Below are positions 3,347-19,366 of a DNA stretch of 64,000 nucleotides, in pieces. The translations under genes and the position numbers were made by a program. How positions within the stretch are numbered: position 1 is the stretch's first letter; every line of letters begins with the position of its first letter. The notes beneath the pieces were generated by a model. It did no database searches. It saw nothing but the letters and a program-made list of their open reading frames with translations, and had not been told where the DNA came from. This DNA is from a virus (lineage: Duplodnaviria; Caudoviricetes): IMG/VR virus record IMGVR_UViG_3300005546_000002, positions 31,867 through 95,866 of that record; one strand, written 5' to 3'.

Positions 3347-3375
3347 TTGAATCTGGGTTGCTACCCTGATAAGCT
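3347..3375 (+). promoter_or_regulatory. Promoter for a leaderless mRNA
   Basis: TTGAAT-N17-TAAGCT with TG extension; ATG 7 nt after the -10. Confidence 0.55.
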
Positions 3376-3382
3376 CTCGCGA

Positions 3383-3832
3383 ATGGAAGCCTACCGAATA
3401 TGGAACGGATCGGACGGAGCCGCTACAACCGAATTCTATAACCGACTCAAGCAACGCGGTCCAGCCGGAGAAATAGCCGTCGCCCTCTTCCGGGCGAATA
3501 AGAACTCCGCTCGGGCTAAGGTCTACCGGGGCGGAATCCGGGGCAAGGGCTCCTATAGGAGTATGGCCTACGAGCGCAAGGACTGGTCCTTAGAGCAACT
3601 TTGTATAGCCCTTGAGCAACACTCTGGGATTCTAGGTATCATCTGGGGATGGAGCTTAGATACGTCTCAGCCGATCCATAATCAGGTTCTCTATCTTGAT
3701 ATCCCGGATATCGGACAAGTCAGCTTCCATACAAAGACCCGGCTGCGCGGGCCTGAGTATCCCGGACGGTGGGACGGAACTCGATTGAGCACCGAACGTA
3801 TTTGTCGGCTTTGTGAAATCACGTTGACGTGA
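3383..3832 (+). CDS. Conserved phage protein with VLYLD.P..GQVSFH...WDG motif (WDGH-domain-like)
   Basis: Motif recognition; stop codon lies inside palindrome 3818-3833. Confidence 0.7.
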   Translation: MEAYRIWNGSDGAATTEFYNRLKQRGPAGEIAVALFRANKNSARAKVYRGGIRGKGSYRSMAYERKDWSLEQLCIALEQHSGILGIIWGWSLDTSQPIHNQVLYLDIPDIGQVSFHTKTRLRGPEYPGRWDGTRLSTERICRLCEITLT

Positions 3833-3833
3833 C
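3818..3833. repeat. 16-bp palindrome copy 3 (holds both stops of convergent genes)
   Basis: ATCACGTTGACGTGAC. Confidence 0.95.
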
Positions 3834-4088
3834 TTTCTTCGCTCCAATCTTTTCCTTGTAGATAAACTCCACGCATGGCGGACCCGTTCTGTAGACCACC
3901 CGGTCCTTCTTCTCGTTCAGGTATCGCACCTTCTTACCCGTTCGTTCGATCTTACCCTGTCGCGCTAGGGCGGCAAGGTAACGTCCGATATTGTACTGAG
4001 AAATGCCAGTAGCCGCTACAACGTCTATCACTGTGCAGCCCGAGCCGAACTCTTTCACCGCCTGTAGCACTCGTTTAATCTCCGACAT
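3819..4088 (-). CDS. Winged helix-turn-helix DNA-binding protein
   Basis: TVIDVVAATGISQYNIGRYLAALARQGKIERTG; AGGAG RBS. Confidence 0.8.
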   Translation of the reverse strand: MSEIKRVLQAVKEFGSGCTVIDVVAATGISQYNIGRYLAALARQGKIERTGKKVRYLNEKKDRVVYRTGPPCVEFIYKEKIGAKKVTST

Positions 4089-4161
4089 AATCTCTCCTAA
4101 AGAAAAAGGCCCGGACTCCGCTGAGCCCGAGCCGCGAACATCAGTCTGTTTTTGTTAGGAC

Positions 4162-5739
4162 TCAGCTCTTTTTGGCCTTCTTGCCTTTCTTGGAGCCTTT
4201 CTTTGCGTTCTTTGCTGCCCCGCCGCCTTTGGTCGGCTTCGGGTGAGCCACGATACCGCGCTCCGCGTTGTCTTCCTGCTCCGACTTGTCCGCCTTTTCG
4301 AGCAACGCCTGTGCTTCCTGTTCCAGAACAGCCGCTCTCTCAAGGTCTTCCGGCGTGTTGCCCTCGCGCAGCACATTCGCCGAACGAAGTTTGTTTGCCG
4401 CCTGCGCTCTCCATTCCTTGCGATCTTCCTTGTTCTTGTCGTACTTCTTCTTGTTCGTCTGAGCCAGTTCGGCCTTCCACGCATTCACGTCCTCGCGAAT
4501 CGACTTTGCCGACGCCCCCTCGTGAATCGCCTTCTGGAACTGTTCGCGATCCTCCGCCGAGATACCCTCTAGCACCGTCTCGATGTCCGCGAGGCGCTTT
4601 TCATTGTCGCGCAGTGTCTTACCCGCTGCTCGAATCTCAGCCTTGATATCCGACAGTTTCTTCGGGGTCTCGCCGTCCAGCATCGCCAAGAACTTATTGC
4701 GATCTTCCGGCTTGACGATCTTCTGAGTGTTGAGAGCCTCCTGCACTGCCGTTCGATTGCCCTCTTTCTTCAAGAAAGCGTCGGCCTCTGCCTTTACATC
4801 CTTGATCGACACGCCAGAAGCGACTTTCTCTCGGAACCGATCTCGATGATCTTCGGGAATGGTCTCAAGCAGCTTATCCAACGCATCCGCCGCCGCCTGA
4901 ACCTCTTTGTACTTCTTGACCGCACCCTTGATCCCGGCTATCGGGACGCCCTGAGCGAACAATTCCGCAAACTGCGCTTGATCCGCTGGCGGAACATCGC
5001 CCATCAGCGTCTTGAACGCATCTTTCCGCTCGCGCTCCGCCTTCTGCGCAGCATACTTCGGCTGCGTGTAGCACTTCAGAGCCTCATCGAATTGAGCGAC
5101 GGCTTCTTTCTTCGCAGCGGGCACATAATCCTTGATCGCCTCTTTCGGCTCCGGGGCTCGGAACGAAAAAGAAAAGTGAAACGCGGGCTGCTTTTCTTCC
5201 GGCACGCCCGGCGCAGCGGCCTCGCCTGTCTTTGCAATCTCAGACAGATACGTTTTCTTTGCCGTCTTGAATTCGGCGACGGTCAGCGGTCTGCGCTCGC
5301 CGTTTGTCCCAATCGTACCCTCTGCAGCCATCGCGAGCAACGCTGCCTGATCTTTCGGCTGATCCTTCAGGTTCGCTACCTCGTAATGGATGTCAAAGGC
5401 GATTTCGGGATTCCAAAGGTCTTTCGGAACGTTGTCCACGACATACAGGACGTTCTTCAACCGCTGGAACTTCATCCCGAAAATGTCGTAGACCTGAGAA
5501 GCCATCTCACCGACTTTTAGCTCCGAAGCCCGGACGAACGTCCCGATCACGAACGGACGGGACTTGTCAATGAACTCGTACCCCTTTGCGATCCGTTCGC
5601 CTTCCTGTTTCACCAAATCCGGGGTAAGCTCGACACCTTCGTCAAACTCATACCCCTTATCGGTGATGCTCCCAAACTGCAATCTGTATTCGCTCGGTGC
5701 CAGCGCGTGCGAGCCCCGAGTCGTTATAGCCTGCGTCAT
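4162..5739 (-). CDS. LmbU/ParB-HTH-like DNA-binding protein with four helical repeats and Lys-rich tail
   Basis: FVIGTFV...GMKFQRLKNVLYVV...IAFDIHYEVANL...Q..LL resembles the LmbU pattern (WxIGDW...YQTLRNxxWVA...LSFxHHxEVAxL); repeats L..(I/V)..EDR..F.....G.S...I; tail AKKGSKKGKKAKKS. Confidence 0.6.
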   Translation of the reverse strand: MTQAITTRGSHALAPSEYRLQFGSITDKGYEFDEGVELTPDLVKQEGERIAKGYEFIDKSRPFVIGTFVRASELKVGEMASQVYDIFGMKFQRLKNVLYVVDNVPKDLWNPEIAFDIHYEVANLKDQPKDQAALLAMAAEGTIGTNGERRPLTVAEFKTAKKTYLSEIAKTGEAAAPGVPEEKQPAFHFSFSFRAPEPKEAIKDYVPAAKKEAVAQFDEALKCYTQPKYAAQKAERERKDAFKTLMGDVPPADQAQFAELFAQGVPIAGIKGAVKKYKEVQAAADALDKLLETIPEDHRDRFREKVASGVSIKDVKAEADAFLKKEGNRTAVQEALNTQKIVKPEDRNKFLAMLDGETPKKLSDIKAEIRAAGKTLRDNEKRLADIETVLEGISAEDREQFQKAIHEGASAKSIREDVNAWKAELAQTNKKKYDKNKEDRKEWRAQAANKLRSANVLREGNTPEDLERAAVLEQEAQALLEKADKSEQEDNAERGIVAHPKPTKGGGAAKNAKKGSKKGKKAKKS

Positions 5740-5763
5740 GAGTAATCTCCCTATCTTCCAGCA

Positions 5764-5779
5764 ATCACGTCAACGTGAC
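5764..5779. repeat. 16-bp palindrome copy 4
   Basis: ATCACGTCAACGTGAC. Confidence 0.95.
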
Positions 5780-6195
5780 TCTGTACTTTTCGATCCGTAT
5801 CTTAATCGGGTCATCAATCGAACTCCGTCAAGATGCGGGCATTGTTGTTTGATGGAGAACTTCGGACACTGACAACTGCTTAGGTCCTCTGGAATCTCGT
5901 ACCATTCTCCACCCGATCCCAGAACCCGCCAACCGTTTTCCGTCTTCTCCGTGCGAAGCAACCGCACGAGAATCCCTAGCGGGCTCTCTGTTTTCAAATA
6001 CTCGCATAAGGTTTTGTAATTCGCTTCCTCTGATGCGGCCAACCGATGTTGTCGCTCTGCGTCTTTTGTATTATCGACCTTGATCTTATGTTTTGATTCG
6101 TTCTCTAAAAATTCGGCCAGCAACAAGTCAAGCAATCCCCGCTGGCGCTCCGAGTGTTTTACAAGCTGCTGGATTCTGTTTTCGACCTTGCTCAT
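5770..6195 (-). CDS. SWIM zinc-finger protein
   Basis: YEI...CQCPKF....CPH (CxC-xn-CxH). Confidence 0.8.
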   Translation of the reverse strand: MSKVENRIQQLVKHSERQRGLLDLLLAEFLENESKHKIKVDNTKDAERQHRLAASEEANYKTLCEYLKTESPLGILVRLLRTEKTENGWRVLGSGGEWYEIPEDLSSCQCPKFSIKQQCPHLDGVRLMTRLRYGSKSTESR

Positions 6196-6440: not shown

Positions 6441-6469
6441 AGTATCGTTGATTTCAATTTTAATGTCAA
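6441..6469 (-). promoter_or_regulatory. Sigma70-type promoter, class I
   Basis: AATAATTC-TTGACA-N17-GATACT. Confidence 0.75.
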
Positions 6470-6479
6470 GAATTATTTT

Positions 6480-6495
6480 GTCACGTTGACGTGAC
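6480..6495. repeat. 16-bp palindrome copy 5
   Basis: GTCACGTTGACGTGAC. Confidence 0.95.
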
Positions 6496-6555: not shown

Positions 6556-7155
6556 TTAGGAGGGAGGGAGATCGGGCAGTACGATTCTGCCAATCTTGCT
6601 AAATATCTGAACGAATTTCGCCGGGTCCGCGCCGAAATATACGAACGTCTGTCCGCGCTTCGCCTGTCCGCCAACGGTCCCATCGTGCTTGATAAACTTG
6701 ATTCGATCCCGCGCAAGACAGACCGGATATCTGACCCAGAGGTTCTCATACCACCTATAGCCATGAGTCGAGTTAATCAGCAAGATGCCCTGCTTGAAGT
6801 GTCCAGCCTCGTATTCAGCGGCCATCTTTTGCGACCATAGAGCCTGATTGCTTCCCGCCTCCGACTTACCATAGGGCGGATTGCAGAAGACGGTTGCTCG
6901 AAGATTCCAGCTCGCCTCTAGCCCTTTCTGCGAATAGTAGCTTTGGGCTTTAATCCATTCTTGAGGCGCTCTATCGCTCGCAGGATCAAGGCCGATCTCG
7001 CCCAGAACCTCTCGCACCATCTCGATTATATACGGAGGCGTGTACCATGACTGCGATTCATGGCTCGTAAGGACAGACATCGGCTGGCCCATTACAGGCC
7101 GCTCCAACGCAGCTAGCAGCTCGATGTTCTTCTGTATCTGCGCTCGGTTTTCCAT
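6556..7155 (-). CDS. Phage DNA N6-adenine methyltransferase (Dam-like)
   Basis: WYTPP, LDPAS, VFCNPPY, RIKF motifs; start MENRAQ. Confidence 0.9.
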   Translation of the reverse strand: MENRAQIQKNIELLAALERPVMGQPMSVLTSHESQSWYTPPYIIEMVREVLGEIGLDPASDRAPQEWIKAQSYYSQKGLEASWNLRATVFCNPPYGKSEAGSNQALWSQKMAAEYEAGHFKQGILLINSTHGYRWYENLWVRYPVCLARDRIKFIKHDGTVGGQAKRGQTFVYFGADPAKFVQIFSKIGRIVLPDLPPS

Positions 7156-7426
7156 CACGCTATCGATTCTGCAAGTAGGTCGGCGAGTAGGTCGGCGAGC
7201 TTGCCAATTACCTTGGCAGCGCATGAAAAACAAAGCGGGACAGGGCCAATTTCTACGCATACGGGCTGACCGCAGGGTAACGACTCTCTTTCCAAGCCGG
7301 GACAGGTTACGTCGATGAACTCAGAAGGCGAAAGAGAGATATTGCCCGTTGAATGATGCACGGATACCGGCTCTGTGGCGATACGTCTAAAAGCATCTTC
7401 CCATCGCTGCGTTTTACTCATTTCGA

Positions 7427-8294: not shown

Positions 8295-10182
8295 TTCTGT
8301 TCCCCGCCCACCATTCCTCGCATTCGAGAAGATACGGAGCCCATCTCAGATAGTCCGCTCTCGTTCGAGGGTCGGCAAAAAACTGCTTGAAGTCGCCGGG
8401 CGCGTAAGCATTAACGTGCAAGAGCGCAGTCTTTGGCACAGCAATACTACAAGCAATAGCGTCGTCACCCTCCACCATTGAATAGCGGTTGTTTAATCGC
8501 TCTCGCTTCCATTTGTAGAAGCAGCGCCCGCCCGTAGCCTTCACTACCGTAGCCAGCGTCCCCGGACCCGGATTACCATAAGGCCGATGCCGAGTCACGT
8601 CAACGTGATGCCGAATCCGCCAGTTATTATGACACCATCTATTGTACCGCTCCGCCTCAACTTGCTCCCAGTAAACCTCTTGACCGACCGTGACAGAGCC
8701 TGCCTTGATCGACCTGTTCAGTTCCTCGCGGTAAGCTTCAAAGTCCGGCGCATCCCCGGCAACCAGAGCCCGCGACTGATCGTAAATCAGTTCAACCGCC
8801 TGAGCAAACCCTTCATTGCTCCATAGCTGCCAAGGCGGGTGAGGATGAAATACCGGCGAACGATCCAACAACCCTTGGAGAACTAGCACCAGTCGGTTAT
8901 GCTCGTCAATCTGGTCCTTGACGTGTTCGGATATGTCGTCGTAATAGACGCTCTCCGGCGACCAGAAAATATACTTGTCGTGACTACCGAAATAATGCGG
9001 CTCCCAGCCACGTTTCTTTTTAGGCGTCCGCTTCCACTCTGCTAGTTCTTCTTCGTACCTCTTCCGCGCCTTCCGCTCGTCATCGAAGATTTGCAGATGC
9101 TCGCCCTCGCTGATCAATTTGTCCACCCTACCACCAAACATCTTGGCGTACACTCCGCTACCAAGCTCCGAGCGCTCGATATCAGGGAACAGCTTAGAGC
9201 CGAACTCTATGCCCGTGCTTAAGCGAAATACCTGTTCGCCGTTTCTGATATACAGAAAGGTCAGCTCATCGGCTTCCGAGGCGAAGAGGATGTTAATGAA
9301 ATCGCGGAACGTAACGCCCTCTCGGTGCTTCTCGTTTCTCCGAACCTGAAAGGCAAGGACACATCGCGGGAAGGGCAGTAATCGCTCTAGATTCTCGGGT
9401 TCTATAACCCATTTATCGAACGCTTGAATATCCTTGAACGTCATACCGCCCGTTCGGTACTCGGCTAAACACTCTTCGTCCATATAGGCCCGCCGCTGGA
9501 AGAGCCTTACGCGCTCGCCAATCGGGGCTGGTTCGCCCTCTTTGACTTGCTCGACCTGCTCTATCAGACCGGCGTACAGTTCCACATGAAACACCCGCGC
9601 TTTGATTACCTTAATCGCCGGTTGAAGCTCCGCCAGCGCCCCCTCCATAGCCAATATCGGCGCTTGAAGCCATGCGGCCATCGCCTCGTTATGTCTCTTG
9701 ATCCTATCGAACAACTCTGGCAAGGTCTTCTCTTTGGCGAGAATCAACGCCTCTTTGTACTCATTTACGGGCTGAGAGCCGCTACGAATCGCTAGCGCCT
9801 GCGTCTCGCTCCCGTCGCTTAAGCTCTGTCTCGGGCTGATCGCTAGGCTGCGCGTAATCTCCTGAACCTCCGCCATTAACGCTCGGGCTTTCCCGCGATG
9901 CTTTTCTACCTTACGCGCTATATACTCTTCCGCGTCCGGCGCAGCCTTACAGACCTGATAGAATTTATTGAAATGAACCCTTGTAGTATAAACTCCGCCG
10001 TAGGTCTCAGCCGGTCCGTCGAATTCCGCGTAGTTAGACCCTAGATGGACTATGCAGCCTAACCACGGCTTCTTGTCGTCGTGCTCCTGAATCCAGAACC
10101 ACTGACCAACCATCAGCTCGCCGTCTTCGTTCTCTATGGTCGGCAAGACCCTCCGGCTTAACTGGGAATTCGTTTCACTCAT
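8284..10182 (-). CDS. Large hypothetical phage protein (coiled-coil N-part)
   Basis: Long ORF; ATG 10182 lies 4 nt from a palindrome; a second palindrome is inside the CDS. Confidence 0.85.
   Translation of the reverse strand: MSETNSQLSRRVLPTIENEDGELMVGQWFWIQEHDDKKPWLGCIVHLGSNYAEFDGPAETYGGVYTTRVHFNKFYQVCKAAPDAEEYIARKVEKHRGKARALMAEVQEITRSLAISPRQSLSDGSETQALAIRSGSQPVNEYKEALILAKEKTLPELFDRIKRHNEAMAAWLQAPILAMEGALAELQPAIKVIKARVFHVELYAGLIEQVEQVKEGEPAPIGERVRLFQRRAYMDEECLAEYRTGGMTFKDIQAFDKWVIEPENLERLLPFPRCVLAFQVRRNEKHREGVTFRDFINILFASEADELTFLYIRNGEQVFRLSTGIEFGSKLFPDIERSELGSGVYAKMFGGRVDKLISEGEHLQIFDDERKARKRYEEELAEWKRTPKKKRGWEPHYFGSHDKYIFWSPESVYYDDISEHVKDQIDEHNRLVLVLQGLLDRSPVFHPHPPWQLWSNEGFAQAVELIYDQSRALVAGDAPDFEAYREELNRSIKAGSVTVGQEVYWEQVEAERYNRWCHNNWRIRHHVDVTRHRPYGNPGPGTLATVVKATGGRCFYKWKRERLNNRYSMVEGDDAIACSIAVPKTALLHVNAYAPGDFKQFFADPRTRADYLRWAPYLLECEEWWAGNRNGR
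8594..8609. repeat. 16-bp palindrome copy 6 (in CDS)
   Basis: GTCACGTCAACGTGAT. Confidence 0.95.
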
Positions 10183-13367: not shown

Positions 13368-15847
13368 TTACGGAAAGTCATAGTTTCTCTTTTGCCATGA
13401 AACCACAGAGACGTGGTCAACTACGGAGAACATCTCTATCTCCAACTCATGCACAATGCGGTCAATGTCGTCTTCGCCGAGATCGTCGGCGACTGTCACT
13501 TCAACCCGCATAAGAAATTTCACTTTCTTCATCCTCCTTAGATCGTCCAACCGAGCCGCCAATAAAGCTGTTCAACTTGATCGCAAAGGCGATCCCGCTG
13601 GCGCTTGCCTCGAATTTTCTCGTCGTTAGTGTTGATGATCAGCCCATTGATTTCGTCAAGCTCGACTCCTTCCAGTCTCTCAGAATCGACCAGCGCGAGA
13701 CGGACTGGTGGAATTTCGCCTATCGTGACGGCAGTAATTAGCACCTTCATGGTATTCATTCTCCTTGTGTCAGCTTCCGCTCCAAGTCTTTAGTAGACAA
13801 GCGCGTCCCGCAGAACGGACAGAAATAGACCCGGATGATAGTATTTGCGGAATCATACCAGAGATACCATCCCGGTCCTTGCCATTGATTATAACCGGCT
13901 CCGATTACGAGTCTGTAGTGCAGCGCGATCTCTTCGGTTACGTACCAAATACCCATCGGATCGTCGCCCTTGATATCCTTAAATGCCTCGCAACACAACT
14001 CGCGCGGAGCAATCTCTTCTTCGCCGTTATCGTGTTCCGTCTTTACGCTCATTCTTTAACCTCACATCAGTTTCTCGAACTCTATCCGGGTCTGCTCCAA
14101 GTTCCAGCCTTTCTCGGACGCCTTGAAGCCAAACTCGACTGCCATCCAAAGATTCGGATCGATCTCGCGGCTTTCTTCTCCTAGCACTCGATCTATCCGA
14201 CTGCGCTCGACCAGTCGGGCTCGTATGGGCATCGACCCGGATTTCTCTTCTTCGCTGTTTAGCGCCCGGACTCGCCGTTCGGCCTCTTCTTTTTCCCTGT
14301 TCCCGTAGTAGCCATCCGGCAAGTCGTACCAAGACTCATGTTGCAACTGCTGGTATTGAATTACGTAGGATACTTCCCTGCTCATTACCCGTACCTCCGT
14401 TCCCCGTCAATCTCCGTACTCAAAGTGTGTTATCACGCGAGGCTCGCCTTCGGCAGAAACGCCGTCGAGTCGTACAACGGCTCCTACAGGATAACTCGCC
14501 AAGAAGCCGATGTCTTGCTGCGGTAAAGCTTTGAGGACTTCCAACGCTTGTTCTGCGCTGTCCGCTGCTACAATAGCGATTATCCCCCCGCTAAAGCTTG
14601 CATCGCCGTGTGCCTGATATACGTTCATACCCATACCTCCGTCCCTGTCAAACACAGGATCGAATACGCCAAGCTCTTCTCTCGGTCGTTCATCTGCTTC
14701 CAGATACCTTGCGACCGCTCTTGAAGAACAGGATCAAGACTCCGATGCGCTCCGCATAGAGCCCTGAGATAGTTCGTTACCTTGATTGCGAATTCTAGTT
14801 CCATTATTCTATCCTCCCCGGCTCTCGCTCGTGTTCGCATCGCTGAATCTCGCAGGCCAGTGGTTTCTCGCTTCCGCATAAACTACAAAGCAAGGATACC
14901 CCATGCGGGCTAATCAAGCAGCTTCCAACACAGCGATGCGTCTCGGTGTCTTCGCCCTCATAACTGCAATGCGCTATGCGAACCATCTCAAGCAACGCGT
15001 CGTCTATCACTAGCGGAGCATTAAGCTGAACCTGTTTGGGCATTACGACCTCTCCAAGTATTCGCGCTCTTCCTCCGCGACCGCATTAGCTAACTCGACC
15101 AGCGCGGCCTGTACTTCCGCCGCGTTATCTTCGTTCCAAGACAAACCCGCAGCTTCATAGGCCGACTTGAAATAGTGCGTCAATGTACCGCGCCGCTTGT
15201 TTCTTTTGCTCTGTGAATAGACTCATTGCGCCTTCTCTCCTTCGCGACGTTCAGCGTCGGCAATCGCGACCCTGACCATCCCCCATGCTTCGTGCTCGTC
15301 ATCCCCCAGACAATCGGGCCCATGAACCGCGCTCGTCGGCTGATTCATTCGCTGAAATACTGTATCGACCGCTTTGAGCGCTGCGAGTGATTTATCGTAA
15401 GAATTGACCGCAGTAACTATCAGCCGCGCTCTGAGCTTTGTTTGTTCTTCCGTTTCCGCATAGACAATGACCGGCGCATTGGTATCCGTCGTGACGTGCT
15501 GATAGAACCCCTTACTCGGCCAATTGTCTTTTGGCTCGCCCTGAAGTGCCCATGCCTGCTCAGTTTCCTTGTTCATAACGCCCTCTCGCCGACTCGCGCT
15601 CAAACACCGGAGCGCTGTCTTGATCCGTGTATTCCGAGACGTACAACACATGCGCGTTCTGCCGCGCATACCTCATACACTCGCGCTCGGGAGCAACCAT
15701 CAGCCGTACACCGGCCCCGTCGATCGCGCAATACTCGGAATTCGGCTCGTCTTCGCCGTAACGTTCCGGGTGCGTAGCTCTCTCGTCGCTTTCCTGATCT
15801 TGCATCGCTAATACCCCAGTTGGATCGAAGTCGAGATACGTGTCCAT
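13368..15847 (-). other. Cluster of about ten small, coupled early hypothetical genes
   Basis: Tightly packed minus-strand ORFs, e.g. 13538-13759, 13756-14052, 14062-14385, 14804-15043, 15223-15576, 15560-15847. Confidence 0.65.
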
Positions 15848-15848
15848 G

Positions 15849-16115
15849 TTACTCTCCTCCTTTCTCAACAGGATACCAACGCCGCGCAACGACGTGGGCT
15901 TCGTAGCGGACTGGGCCAAATGCCGCTTCGCGTCCAAGGTACTCTTCAAAGCGAATCAAGCCTTTGTGAGCCAAGCCGAATAGCCGGTCGCGAAGGGTTG
16001 TCTCGTAACCGCTGTGGTGTCCAAGAGACTCGGCTATTTCGTGAGTGGAACTTCCAGGAAGGCTTTGGACGGCCTTCAGAGCCTCGTTTTGGTTCTGGGT
16101 TAGTTTGCGTGTCAT
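15849..16115 (-). CDS. Winged HTH protein
   Basis: LTQNQNEAL...STHEIAESLG...LRDRLFGLAHKGLI; first gene after promoter. Confidence 0.75.
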   Translation of the reverse strand: MTRKLTQNQNEALKAVQSLPGSSTHEIAESLGHHSGYETTLRDRLFGLAHKGLIRFEEYLGREAAFGPVRYEAHVVARRWYPVEKGGE

Positions 16116-18044: not shown

Positions 18045-18953
18045 TCAAATCTCGGCCTCCTGAGTCACGTTGACGTGACTTTCTAGCGAGTCGATTAGCG
18101 CCCGGTTAGCAGCCATCCGTTCTCCGTTCTCTGTTCGGCATCTTCCTCCGAGTCCGTATAGCCTCATGTTCAACCTCGCCATCTGTACCGCCGTATGATT
18201 GATATCGACCCCGTAGAATTCAACCCAGTGGATATCTATCAGCCAACGAGGTATCTGACTCGCAGCCGCTAGAAGTAACACGCCGGAGCCGCAACAAGGA
18301 TCGCAGATTCGGAAAGGTTCGATCTTGTCGCGCATCAACGGCCAGATGAAGCGAACGAATTGCGAGAGCGGAGCTTCTTCAAGGTCCGGTACCCCGGCTA
18401 TCATCCCGAGACTCAGCACCAACGCTTGAAGAACCGGATCAGCTTCTATGATAGGCTTCGAACGCCTTGAGAACTCCTGCGCGATATCTCCGAGCGACAT
18501 CTGAGCCATCATCAAAGCGATAGGCTGCGGGGTATAAAACTGGTCCTTATTCCAACGAGAGCCTTCCAGTAGGCTCATATAGATCGCCCCGAGAATATCA
18601 GGATAGCTTTCATCGACGGAACAAAGCAGGAGCGCAAAGGCTTCAGCGAACGACCTATAGCAATGAGAGCTTATCTTGTCCAGTTTCGCCTCGCGCCAGC
18701 GCCTCATCGAGTCCTCATCAGAGACGAACTCTTGACGTTTGACGAAGCCCGGAAGGTCGTCCAAACAGAGATTACAGACATCAAGCCAGAGCCGAAATAC
18801 GTCAAGAGTAGAGCGGCTATTATCAGCGCGTTCGAGCAGCTTTAAGATCGCCCGCGAATAGTCGGTAGGCGGTCCGGCTTTGACCGGCGCTTCAGCCGCC
18901 TCAATCTCCGCTATCAGCGCTTTGTTTCTCTTGATTGCTTCGCTGTTATCCAT
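18045..18953 (-). CDS. N-6 DNA methylase (HsdM-like) family protein lacking the NPPF/Y motif
   Basis: DILGAIY, QFYTP, ICDPCCGSGVLL, FYGVDI...MARLNM. Confidence 0.85.
   Translation of the reverse strand: MDNSEAIKRNKALIAEIEAAEAPVKAGPPTDYSRAILKLLERADNSRSTLDVFRLWLDVCNLCLDDLPGFVKRQEFVSDEDSMRRWREAKLDKISSHCYRSFAEAFALLLCSVDESYPDILGAIYMSLLEGSRWNKDQFYTPQPIALMMAQMSLGDIAQEFSRRSKPIIEADPVLQALVLSLGMIAGVPDLEEAPLSQFVRFIWPLMRDKIEPFRICDPCCGSGVLLLAAASQIPRWLIDIHWVEFYGVDINHTAVQMARLNMRLYGLGGRCRTENGERMAANRALIDSLESHVNVTQEAEI
18064..18079. repeat. 16-bp palindrome copy 9 (3' end of methylase)
   Basis: GTCACGTTGACGTGAC. Confidence 0.95.
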
Positions 18954-19366
18954 TACCATAGCTCCCGCAATATACGATCCGCCCAGATAACGATAGCCCG
19001 CGCTTCTGCGCATTGAGCCTTTGGTGTATCAGCCCGACATGCTAAGTCCATATTCGCGCTTCTGATCCTCTGAGCCTGATCTTGAATAGCAGAGGTCCGC
19101 GAAATATAGTTAGCCGACTTCCGCGACGGAGAGAGCGGATGACATTCACTGTGGTAGTTCCCCTGCCTGTGAGTAAAATCCATCGAAGCAATCCAGTCCC
19201 CAGTAGGCAGTTGAAGAACGTAGATAGCCGCCTTCGCTTTTCGACTTTCATAGACAAGCCGCTCGACTGCGGGGTGATCATGAGAATAAACGCCATGCTC
19301 ATTCGGCTCCGGCTCAATCTGAGACAACAGAGCCTTGTTCCTTGCTATCGCCTCTTTGTTATTCAT
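18953..19366 (-). CDS. Hypothetical protein
   Basis: TAATG overlap with the methylase; shares its N-terminal helix. Confidence 0.75.
   Translation of the reverse strand: MNNKEAIARNKALLSQIEPEPNEHGVYSHDHPAVERLVYESRKAKAAIYVLQLPTGDWIASMDFTHRQGNYHSECHPLSPSRKSANYISRTSAIQDQAQRIRSANMDLACRADTPKAQCAEARAIVIWADRILRELW

Follow-up and report, generated by a model that had tools for sequence, protein, structure and literature searches.

The DNA analysed here (the window) is a stretch of 64,000 nucleotides, bases 31,867–95,866 of a 95,866-bp IMG/VR virus record, from an uncultured phage whose genome carries direct terminal repeats and is rated 100% complete. Its minus strand encodes a protein of 525 residues, P0001, which represents the ParB/LmbU helix-turn-helix (HTH) class in a new architecture: the HTH domain is followed, in the models, by a rod of helical repeats, a helical hairpin and a polybasic tail. 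We put at about 0.55–0.6 the probability that P0001 is a sequence-specific DNA-binding factor acting on the phage DNA. The original prediction, made from the letters of the window and a list of its open reading frames (ORFs), had placed a DNA reader in this region; its ORF is real, with an ATG start, and the end that it gave, 5779, reaches past the ORF (5739) to include a palindrome upstream. The gene and the parts of its product are as follows.

4162–5739, minus strand: P0001 gene, 525 amino acids, from the ORF list and translation; stop codon at 4162–4164
5572–5739, minus strand: residues 1–56, disordered start, conserved beta-hairpin (23–32) and beginning of a long helix, from an AlphaFold2 (AF2) model of residues 1–240
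5209–5571, minus strand: residues 57–177, ParB/LmbU-type HTH DNA-binding domain, from the predicted local distance difference test score (pLDDT, mostly >90), structural matches and weak matches to NF038070
5029–5208, minus strand: residues 178–237, low-confidence linker (173–183), invariant FHFSFSFR segment and two helices that connect to the repeats, from alignments and the model
4459–5028, minus strand: residues 238–427, four tandem helical repeats of ~46 residues, from a hidden Markov model (HMM) compared with shuffled controls, pLDDT 80–92, and charge
4255–4458, minus strand: residues 428–495, antiparallel helical hairpin of the coiled-coil type, from the model
4165–4254, minus strand: residues 496–525, disordered polybasic tail, from sequence, composition and pLDDT <40

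The DNA-binding domain and the relatives of P0001

In a first full-length AF2 model, built from four sequences, the N-terminal 210 residues had a pLDDT below 50; modelling of residues 1–240 with a 33-sequence alignment gave a confident structure (mean pLDDT 86.7). This model was compared exhaustively with 48,161 PDB representatives using VIA-align, and the matches over residues 57–177 included the ParB DNA-binding domain on parS (6s6h_B, rank 1; Z-score 8.5, root-mean-square deviation (rmsd) 3.8 Å over 101 aligned residues), Spo0J (1vz0_A; Z 7.7, rmsd 2.4 Å over 87 aligned residues), SopB–DNA (3mkw_B; Z 6.5), KorB (8qa8_A, Z 6.5; 1r71_A, Z 6.2), P1 ParB (1zx4_A; Z 5.3) and VirB (3vwb_A; Z 5.2). 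ParB-class proteins fill eight of the top 12 rows. The same proteins came out on top in Foldseek with weak E-values (0.16–1.6), and a structure search of the ESM Atlas returned ParB/HTH_ParB clusters. An HTH fold, first proposed from the sequence, is predicted by the AF2 model and its structural matches, and we assign residues 57–177, as modelled, to the ParB-type HTH fold with high confidence; the predicted recognition helix spans residues 91–103.

The LmbU-family model NF038070 (LmbU_fam_TF) matched P0001 with E = 0.016 (15.2 bits; residues 38–156, profile positions 6–122), the full-length relative P0009 with E = 1.9e-5, and short intermediates with E = 1e-20 to 1e-27 (72–97 bits), all of these matches lying below the curated cut-off of 125 bits. 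The short intermediates, from phages and bacteria, are in turn linked to P0001 by phmmer at E = 1e-7 to 1e-4. Weak matches to the Pfam model HTH_ParB (PF17762) were obtained for 4 of the 33 family members (best E = 5.5e-4, below the cut-off), and a Noc model matched some of the NF038070-matching proteins below threshold. The domain is called ParB/LmbU-like because one class tops three independent searches, the LmbU chain is significant, and weak HTH_ParB matches are present. By sequence similarity, P0001 is a remote relative of the LmbU regulators and not a member of their family; the LmbU/ParB-like label originally given to it thus survives as a statement of remote relationship, borne out by the fold matches and the remote sequence similarity, and has to be given up as one of LmbU membership (15.2 bits versus 125). 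The tetrapeptide GERR at residues 147–150 was considered as a ParB arginine patch and rejected, as it belongs to a variable loop downstream of the HTH that most homologues lack.

No other hallmark of ParB systems was detected, in line with what had been noted from the sequence. The ParB_N model (PF02195) has no match on P0001 or in the whole genome, and no CTPase domain with a GxxRxxA box was found in the protein, whose residues 1–56 model as a beta-hairpin plus helix. For ParA, the model searched was PF13614 (AAA_31), which has no match in the 96-kb genome. P0001 is the sole protein of its domain type in the phage.

The family is rare, with about nine clusters among 1.8 billion representative proteins, all uncharacterised. 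P0001 has no significant family in Pfam or PHROGs, the 50,697 deposited phage genomes searched (phage GenBank collection) contain nothing that matches it as protein or as DNA, and its sequence profile returned only coiled-coil noise from the PDB. An exhaustive phmmer search of 1.84 billion representative proteins gave 31 matches. A handful of full-length relatives have 29–50% identity (P0003 and P0006–P0009, plus P0002 and P0004; P0007 is encoded on a Joint Genome Institute (JGI) contig of 76,405 bp), full-length homologues with 39–50% identity being present in metagenome assemblies, and the remaining matches are about two dozen short proteins of 167–330 amino acids that align to residues ~35–160 only. 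Every member is annotated as unnamed or 'hypothetical'. The full-length proteins are built alike: after the N-terminal domain come the invariant FHFSFSFR segment, the helical repeats, long helices and finally a basic C-terminus. Conservation is highest in the N-terminal domain (55–63% identity over residues 1–240, compared with a BLASTP identity of 42% over 96% of the protein), and within the region of residues 1–56 the block LQFGSI..GYEF is invariant in the family alignment. One remote relative, P0031 (323 amino acids), carries a LmbU-like N-terminal domain in fusion with Phg_2220_C (E = 5e-22), which is a module found in replication-initiation proteins of phages; from its sequence, this fusion hints that the LmbU-like domain has been reused as a DNA-targeting head.

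Helical repeats, hairpin and basic tail

The four helical repeats that had been read from the translation are all present (residues 242–274, 287–319, 338–369 and 386–418), and after one HMM iteration the units extend over residues 238–283, 284–326, 333–376 and 382–427. An HMM made from these four units detects four to five units per full-length homologue (independent E-value (i-E) 1e-5 to 1e-11), and on 200 shuffled sequences it found nothing better than an i-E of 0.28. The unit count varies among the members: P0003 and P0004 have five, most have four, and P0012 and the 370-residue P0010 have two. In the model (pLDDT 80–92), a unit takes in the last part of one long helix, then a short helix, then the first part of the following long helix, giving three-helix bundles chained through continuous helices. 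The best Foldseek matches, which are weak, are to the adhesin rods BibA and EbhA and to engineered rods in which Protein A modules are fused. Neither the word-index search nor the Atlas search returned relatives of the repeats outside the P0001 family.

The iterated repeat HMM also matched residues 128–142 of P0001 and 129–159 of P0002, at the end of the DNA-binding domain. With hhalign, the repeats (as a profile of 38 units) were compared with a domain profile made from 23 short independent relatives only, and they fell in register with the last two helices of the domain (score 22.4, P = 2.8e-4). The reversed profile scored 10.5 and 40 column-shuffled profiles at most 12.5, so that the likeness of the repeats to the helical end of the ParB domain, first seen by eye, stands above all 41 controls. 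The simplest reading of these alignments is that the sub-domain at the end of the DNA-binding domain was duplicated into the repeats.

P0001 had also been proposed as a multivalent nucleoid protein that binds and bridges the 31 sites, a part of the prediction that is not supported. The repeats are near-neutral (190 residues, net charge −1), which makes a role as extra DNA-binding modules unlikely; on account of this charge, we read them as a spacer rod rather than as additional readers.

Beyond the repeats, the coiled coil and basic end of the original prediction are both recovered. Two helices (411–460 and 463–493) are modelled confidently as a hairpin, and the region 409–497 has only generic alpha-hairpin structural matches (Z 8–9); on the model, residues 428–495 are a possible dimerisation element. 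The C-terminus ends in ...AAKNAKKGSKKGKKAKKS, and the last 30 residues contain 11 K+R and no D/E (+11), while the protein minus its tail is slightly acidic overall. The basicity is kept as the sequence drifts, with 10–12 K+R in the last 30 residues of seven of nine members. As a disordered segment rich in Lys, Ala, Ser and Gly, the tail can be described as histone-H1-like in composition, with no homology claimed.

The dispersed palindrome and its possible readers

When up to one mismatch is allowed, the window contains 31 copies of the palindrome TCACGTNNACGTGA, as counted originally, against 0.17 expected, and the whole genome contains 45. Its core has four thymines per strand. Oriented by gene strand, the logo reads AAAG-TCACGTYRACGTGA-C(T), the 5′ flank being better conserved than the 3′ flank. 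Of the 45 copies (examples are those at window positions 3819–3832 and 5765–5778), 42 have CA or TG as the two bases at the centre, two have TA, one has AT and none has CG, such that the centre reads GTYRAC; the choice between CA and TG shows no relation to the direction of the gene (24:18). By position, 19 copies are in contact with a called stop or come just after it, 20 have a called start no more than 40 nt downstream, and 11 are inside long ORFs, away from gene junctions.

A motif-based scan of sequence collections returned one 99.9%-identical fragment (L012, 6 kb, from another IMG/VR record) and about 18 short soil and groundwater fragments that carry the motif, with proteins 40–70% identical to those of the phage. 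Since these diverged fragments carry the same exact motif, it is conserved across a diverged phage clade. The fragments (among them L024, L027, L033, L036, L052, L055, L063 and L064) come from two or three sample series, and none covers the P0001 gene. Scans of viral, metagenome and genome collections for loci of P0001 relatives returned none, and give no evidence either way on co-occurrence with the palindrome.

Two copies lie close to the P0001 gene and the possible start of its three-gene unit.

5765–5778, no strand assigned: palindrome copy, TCACGTYRACGTGA, 25 nt upstream of the P0001 ATG and overlapping the stop codon of the upstream gene (5770–5772); core sequence TCACGTCAACGTGA
6441–6494, minus strand: palindrome copy (6481–6494), then a promoter-like TTGACA-17-GATACT (6441–6469), from a consensus scan and the sequence, as a pattern match only

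We hypothesize that P0001 is a site-specific double-stranded DNA-binding protein of the ParB/KorB/Noc/LmbU HTH class that works with neither a CTPase domain nor a ParA partner. As a dimer, its HTH domain would read a specific and probably palindromic site in the manner of ParB, KorB, Noc and LmbU, with dimerisation supplied by the C-terminal hairpin. The near-neutral helical rod would keep the polybasic tail some 10–15 nm away, where the tail could grip neighbouring DNA without sequence preference, and one molecule would thus hold two DNA segments. The likeliest target would be the phage's own palindrome, with its ~45 copies, because it is the only strongly over-represented palindrome seen in the phage and P0001 is one of three HTH candidates, these being the ones recognised so far in a genome only partly screened for DNA-binding proteins.

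That P0001 reads the ~45 copies of AAAG-TCACGTYRACGTGA-C is a tentative assignment, possible and yet short of probable. In its favour, domains of the ParB class are known to read dispersed palindromes, no other protein of this type occurs in the phage, the DNA-binding domain is the best-conserved domain of the family, as expected if the relatives keep the same site, and copies of the palindrome lie 25 nt upstream of the P0001 ATG and beside the promoter-like site of its unit. The upstream copy, which had been offered as a sign of autoregulation, is indeed present; it is weak evidence for such control, because 20 of the 45 copies are similarly close to some start codon. The most far-reaching form of the proposal, a chromosome-wide reader in a phage of virulent type in which a CTPase-less ParB/LmbU HTH with rod and tail bridges or silences the ~45 junction palindromes, we regard as rather unlikely. 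If true, it would be a phage counterpart of KorB, Noc, RacA or stoperator control in a new architecture.

Several observations weigh against this assignment or against DNA binding as such. Z-scores of 6–8.5 can be reached by chance in all-helical models (the tool advises caution below about 8–13), and Raf1 alpha-domains match as well as KorB (6.5). The direct LmbU match of P0001 amounts to 15 bits, against a curated cut-off of 125, PF17762 matches neither P0001 nor anything else in the genome at E ≤ 1, and the net charge of the DNA-binding domain is 0. On the side of the palindrome, the flank follows the direction of transcription, AAAG being confined to the 5′ side, and about 40% of the copies sit at stop/start junctions, sometimes at the Shine-Dalgarno position; the oriented flank and junction position suggest a better fit to a transcript-level or orientation-dependent role than to a symmetric dimer site. 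Finally, winged-helix proteins of the phage are equally plausible readers of the palindrome.

Dispersed palindromes read by one protein are known from several systems. KorB of plasmid RK2 acts at 12 OB operators and Noc of Bacillus subtilis at about 70 Noc-binding sites (NBS); both read 13–16-bp palindromes scattered over the replicon, have a separate C-terminal dimerisation element and play no role in segregation. P0001 shares the HTH fold with both (KorB, Z 6.2–6.5; Noc DNA-binding domain, Foldseek target-normalised TM-score (TMt) 0.65). In contrast to them, it has no detected N-terminal ParB/CTPase domain, so that no CTP-gated sliding clamp is expected, and its C-terminus consists of repeat rod, hairpin and polybasic tail instead of a KorB/ParB C-terminal domain. 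RacA of B. subtilis, with one N-terminal HTH and a long coiled coil, reads ~25 dispersed 14-bp palindromes, and the repressor of mycobacteriophage L5 binds ~30 short sites (stoperators) in intergenic gaps, all oriented with transcription. Both are functional analogies to P0001 only: their folds differ (MerR-like and lambda-repressor-like, respectively) and no homology is implied. Unlike L5, this phage shows no integrase among the plus-strand genes scanned and no lysogeny module among the genes scanned.

LmbU of Streptomyces lincolnensis is a homodimer that binds the palindrome CGCCGGCG via its HTH domain (PMC6510168). Its remote sequence similarity to P0001 runs across the HTH domain; LmbU differs in having 225 residues, an N-terminal auto-inhibitory domain and neither repeats nor basic tail, and in dimerising through Cys12, which has no counterpart in P0001. 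Among viral proteins, the best BFVD structural match to the P0001 domain is the uncharacterised phage protein A0A6J5MDD7 (E = 6e-7); DUF3102 (PF11300) proteins of Leptospira phage LE4 and a marine virus match with E of about 0.1, and an Atlas feature match likewise points to a cluster with DUF3102. These proteins have about 200 residues and no known function and consist of the domain alone, to which P0001 adds rod and tail. An architecture in which the end of a DNA-binding domain is amplified into a rod of variable length and joined to a polybasic tail has not been described before.

The best-placed of the alternatives, though in itself unlikely, is that P0001 binds DNA but the palindromes are read by a winged-helix protein (encoded at 3819–4088 or 15849–16115) or by a host factor. 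In that case the sites of P0001 would be few, and it might, for instance, regulate its own unit or organise the origin or replication. Two winged-helix proteins had been named originally as other possible readers. For the 89-residue protein at 3819–4088 the fold is clear (FaeA-like, E = 9e-7; MarR_2, E = 2e-5), and its gene comes directly after that of P0001 and ends inside a palindrome copy, but the protein at 15849–16115 has no significant family match and nothing connects either small protein to the motif. A local role in replication would agree with the fusion of a LmbU-like domain to Phg_2220_C in P0031 and with the position of the P0001 gene, 2.4 kb from a replication-initiator-like gene (1035–1751) and next to an ORF-poor region (2.7–3.3 kb). 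Set against this, 525 residues with rod and polybasic tail are elaborate for a local regulator.

Somewhat less likely again is that the palindromes act in RNA, as intercistronic hairpins (6–8-bp stem, UYRA loop) through which processing, stability or translational coupling would be controlled, with no DNA lattice and with P0001 as an unrelated DNA-binding factor. The placement of copies in gene gaps, at or just after stops (19 of 45) and within 40 nt of starts (20 of 45), suits such a role, as do their orientation by gene strand and the conservation of the flank on the 5′ side only; the 11 copies inside long ORFs, far from junctions, do not. Among single-mismatch copies, a G-U pair in the sense transcript is kept in about seven and not in two, but this ratio is not significant (about P = 0.09) and becomes 7:10 once two-mismatch copies are added, and G-U tolerance was dropped as an RNA signature. 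A plain hairpin would not need the invariant stem that is kept in 45 copies and in related phages; because the stem is invariant across the copies and in relatives with 40–70%-identical proteins, we argue for a sequence-specific reader of some kind. That the N-terminal domain no longer binds DNA, and P0001 is a structural or adaptor rod, scaffold or tether whose tail contacts nucleic acid or membrane, is improbable: the zero net charge of the domain, the slight acidity of the protein apart from the tail and the middling strength of the fold matches would allow it, but no other part of the family is as conserved as this domain, the relatives include LmbU, an experimentally shown DNA binder, and the gene lies outside the structural module.

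Phages with dozens of identical junction palindromes recur, and the reader protein is rarely identified. As a palindrome reader, P0001 is a concrete, clonable candidate from a class known for dispersed palindromes (ParB, KorB, Noc), and if it fails in this role, reading of the motif at the RNA level gains attention.

Gene neighbourhood

The P0001 gene is located in the early/replication part of the genome, away from the structural module, and is the last gene of a leftward three-gene unit, after ORFs of 69 and 141 amino acids. Two further features flank it.

5747–5751, minus strand: Shine-Dalgarno-like GGGAG, 7 nt before the P0001 ATG, read from the sequence
4108–4133, minus strand: terminator-like hairpin directly 3′ of the P0001 gene, from a consensus scan and the sequence, as a pattern match only

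The hairpin is a strong one, with eight G-C pairs in its 11-bp stem and the T-run TTTTTCTTTA behind it. It separates the P0001 stop from the ATG (4088) of the winged-helix gene, whose expression would come from read-through or from a start of its own. At the other end, the promoter-like site at 6441–6469 is a possible start of the unit (6401→4162), which, judged from these patterns, seems to own both a promoter and a terminator. The palindrome copy at 6481–6494 is placed 11 nt upstream of the promoter-like site, a spot at which transcription initiation could be influenced by a protein that binds the palindrome. Palindrome and promoter-like site together occupy one of the few true intergenic spacers.

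The 141-residue protein upstream in the unit (5770–6195, minus strand) contains CQCPKF...CPH, by eye SWIM-type zinc-finger-like, and has no family match in Pfam or PHROGs. On the plus strand, a protein of 161 amino acids and unknown family (3347–3832) converges on the winged-helix gene, with its stop inside a palindrome copy. A 58%-identical homologue on the groundwater fragment L059 (528–1007) likewise ends at a copy of the motif, and its neighbours differ from those of the 161-residue protein's gene in the phage. The phage has at least four DNA-methyltransferase-like genes (Dam PF05869, N6_Mtase, phrog_111 and N6_N4_Mtase), located at window positions 6556–7260 and 18045–19013 and at genome positions 8645–9313 and 13464–14138 (L070); the one at 6556–7260, near the P0001 gene, is of the Dam type.

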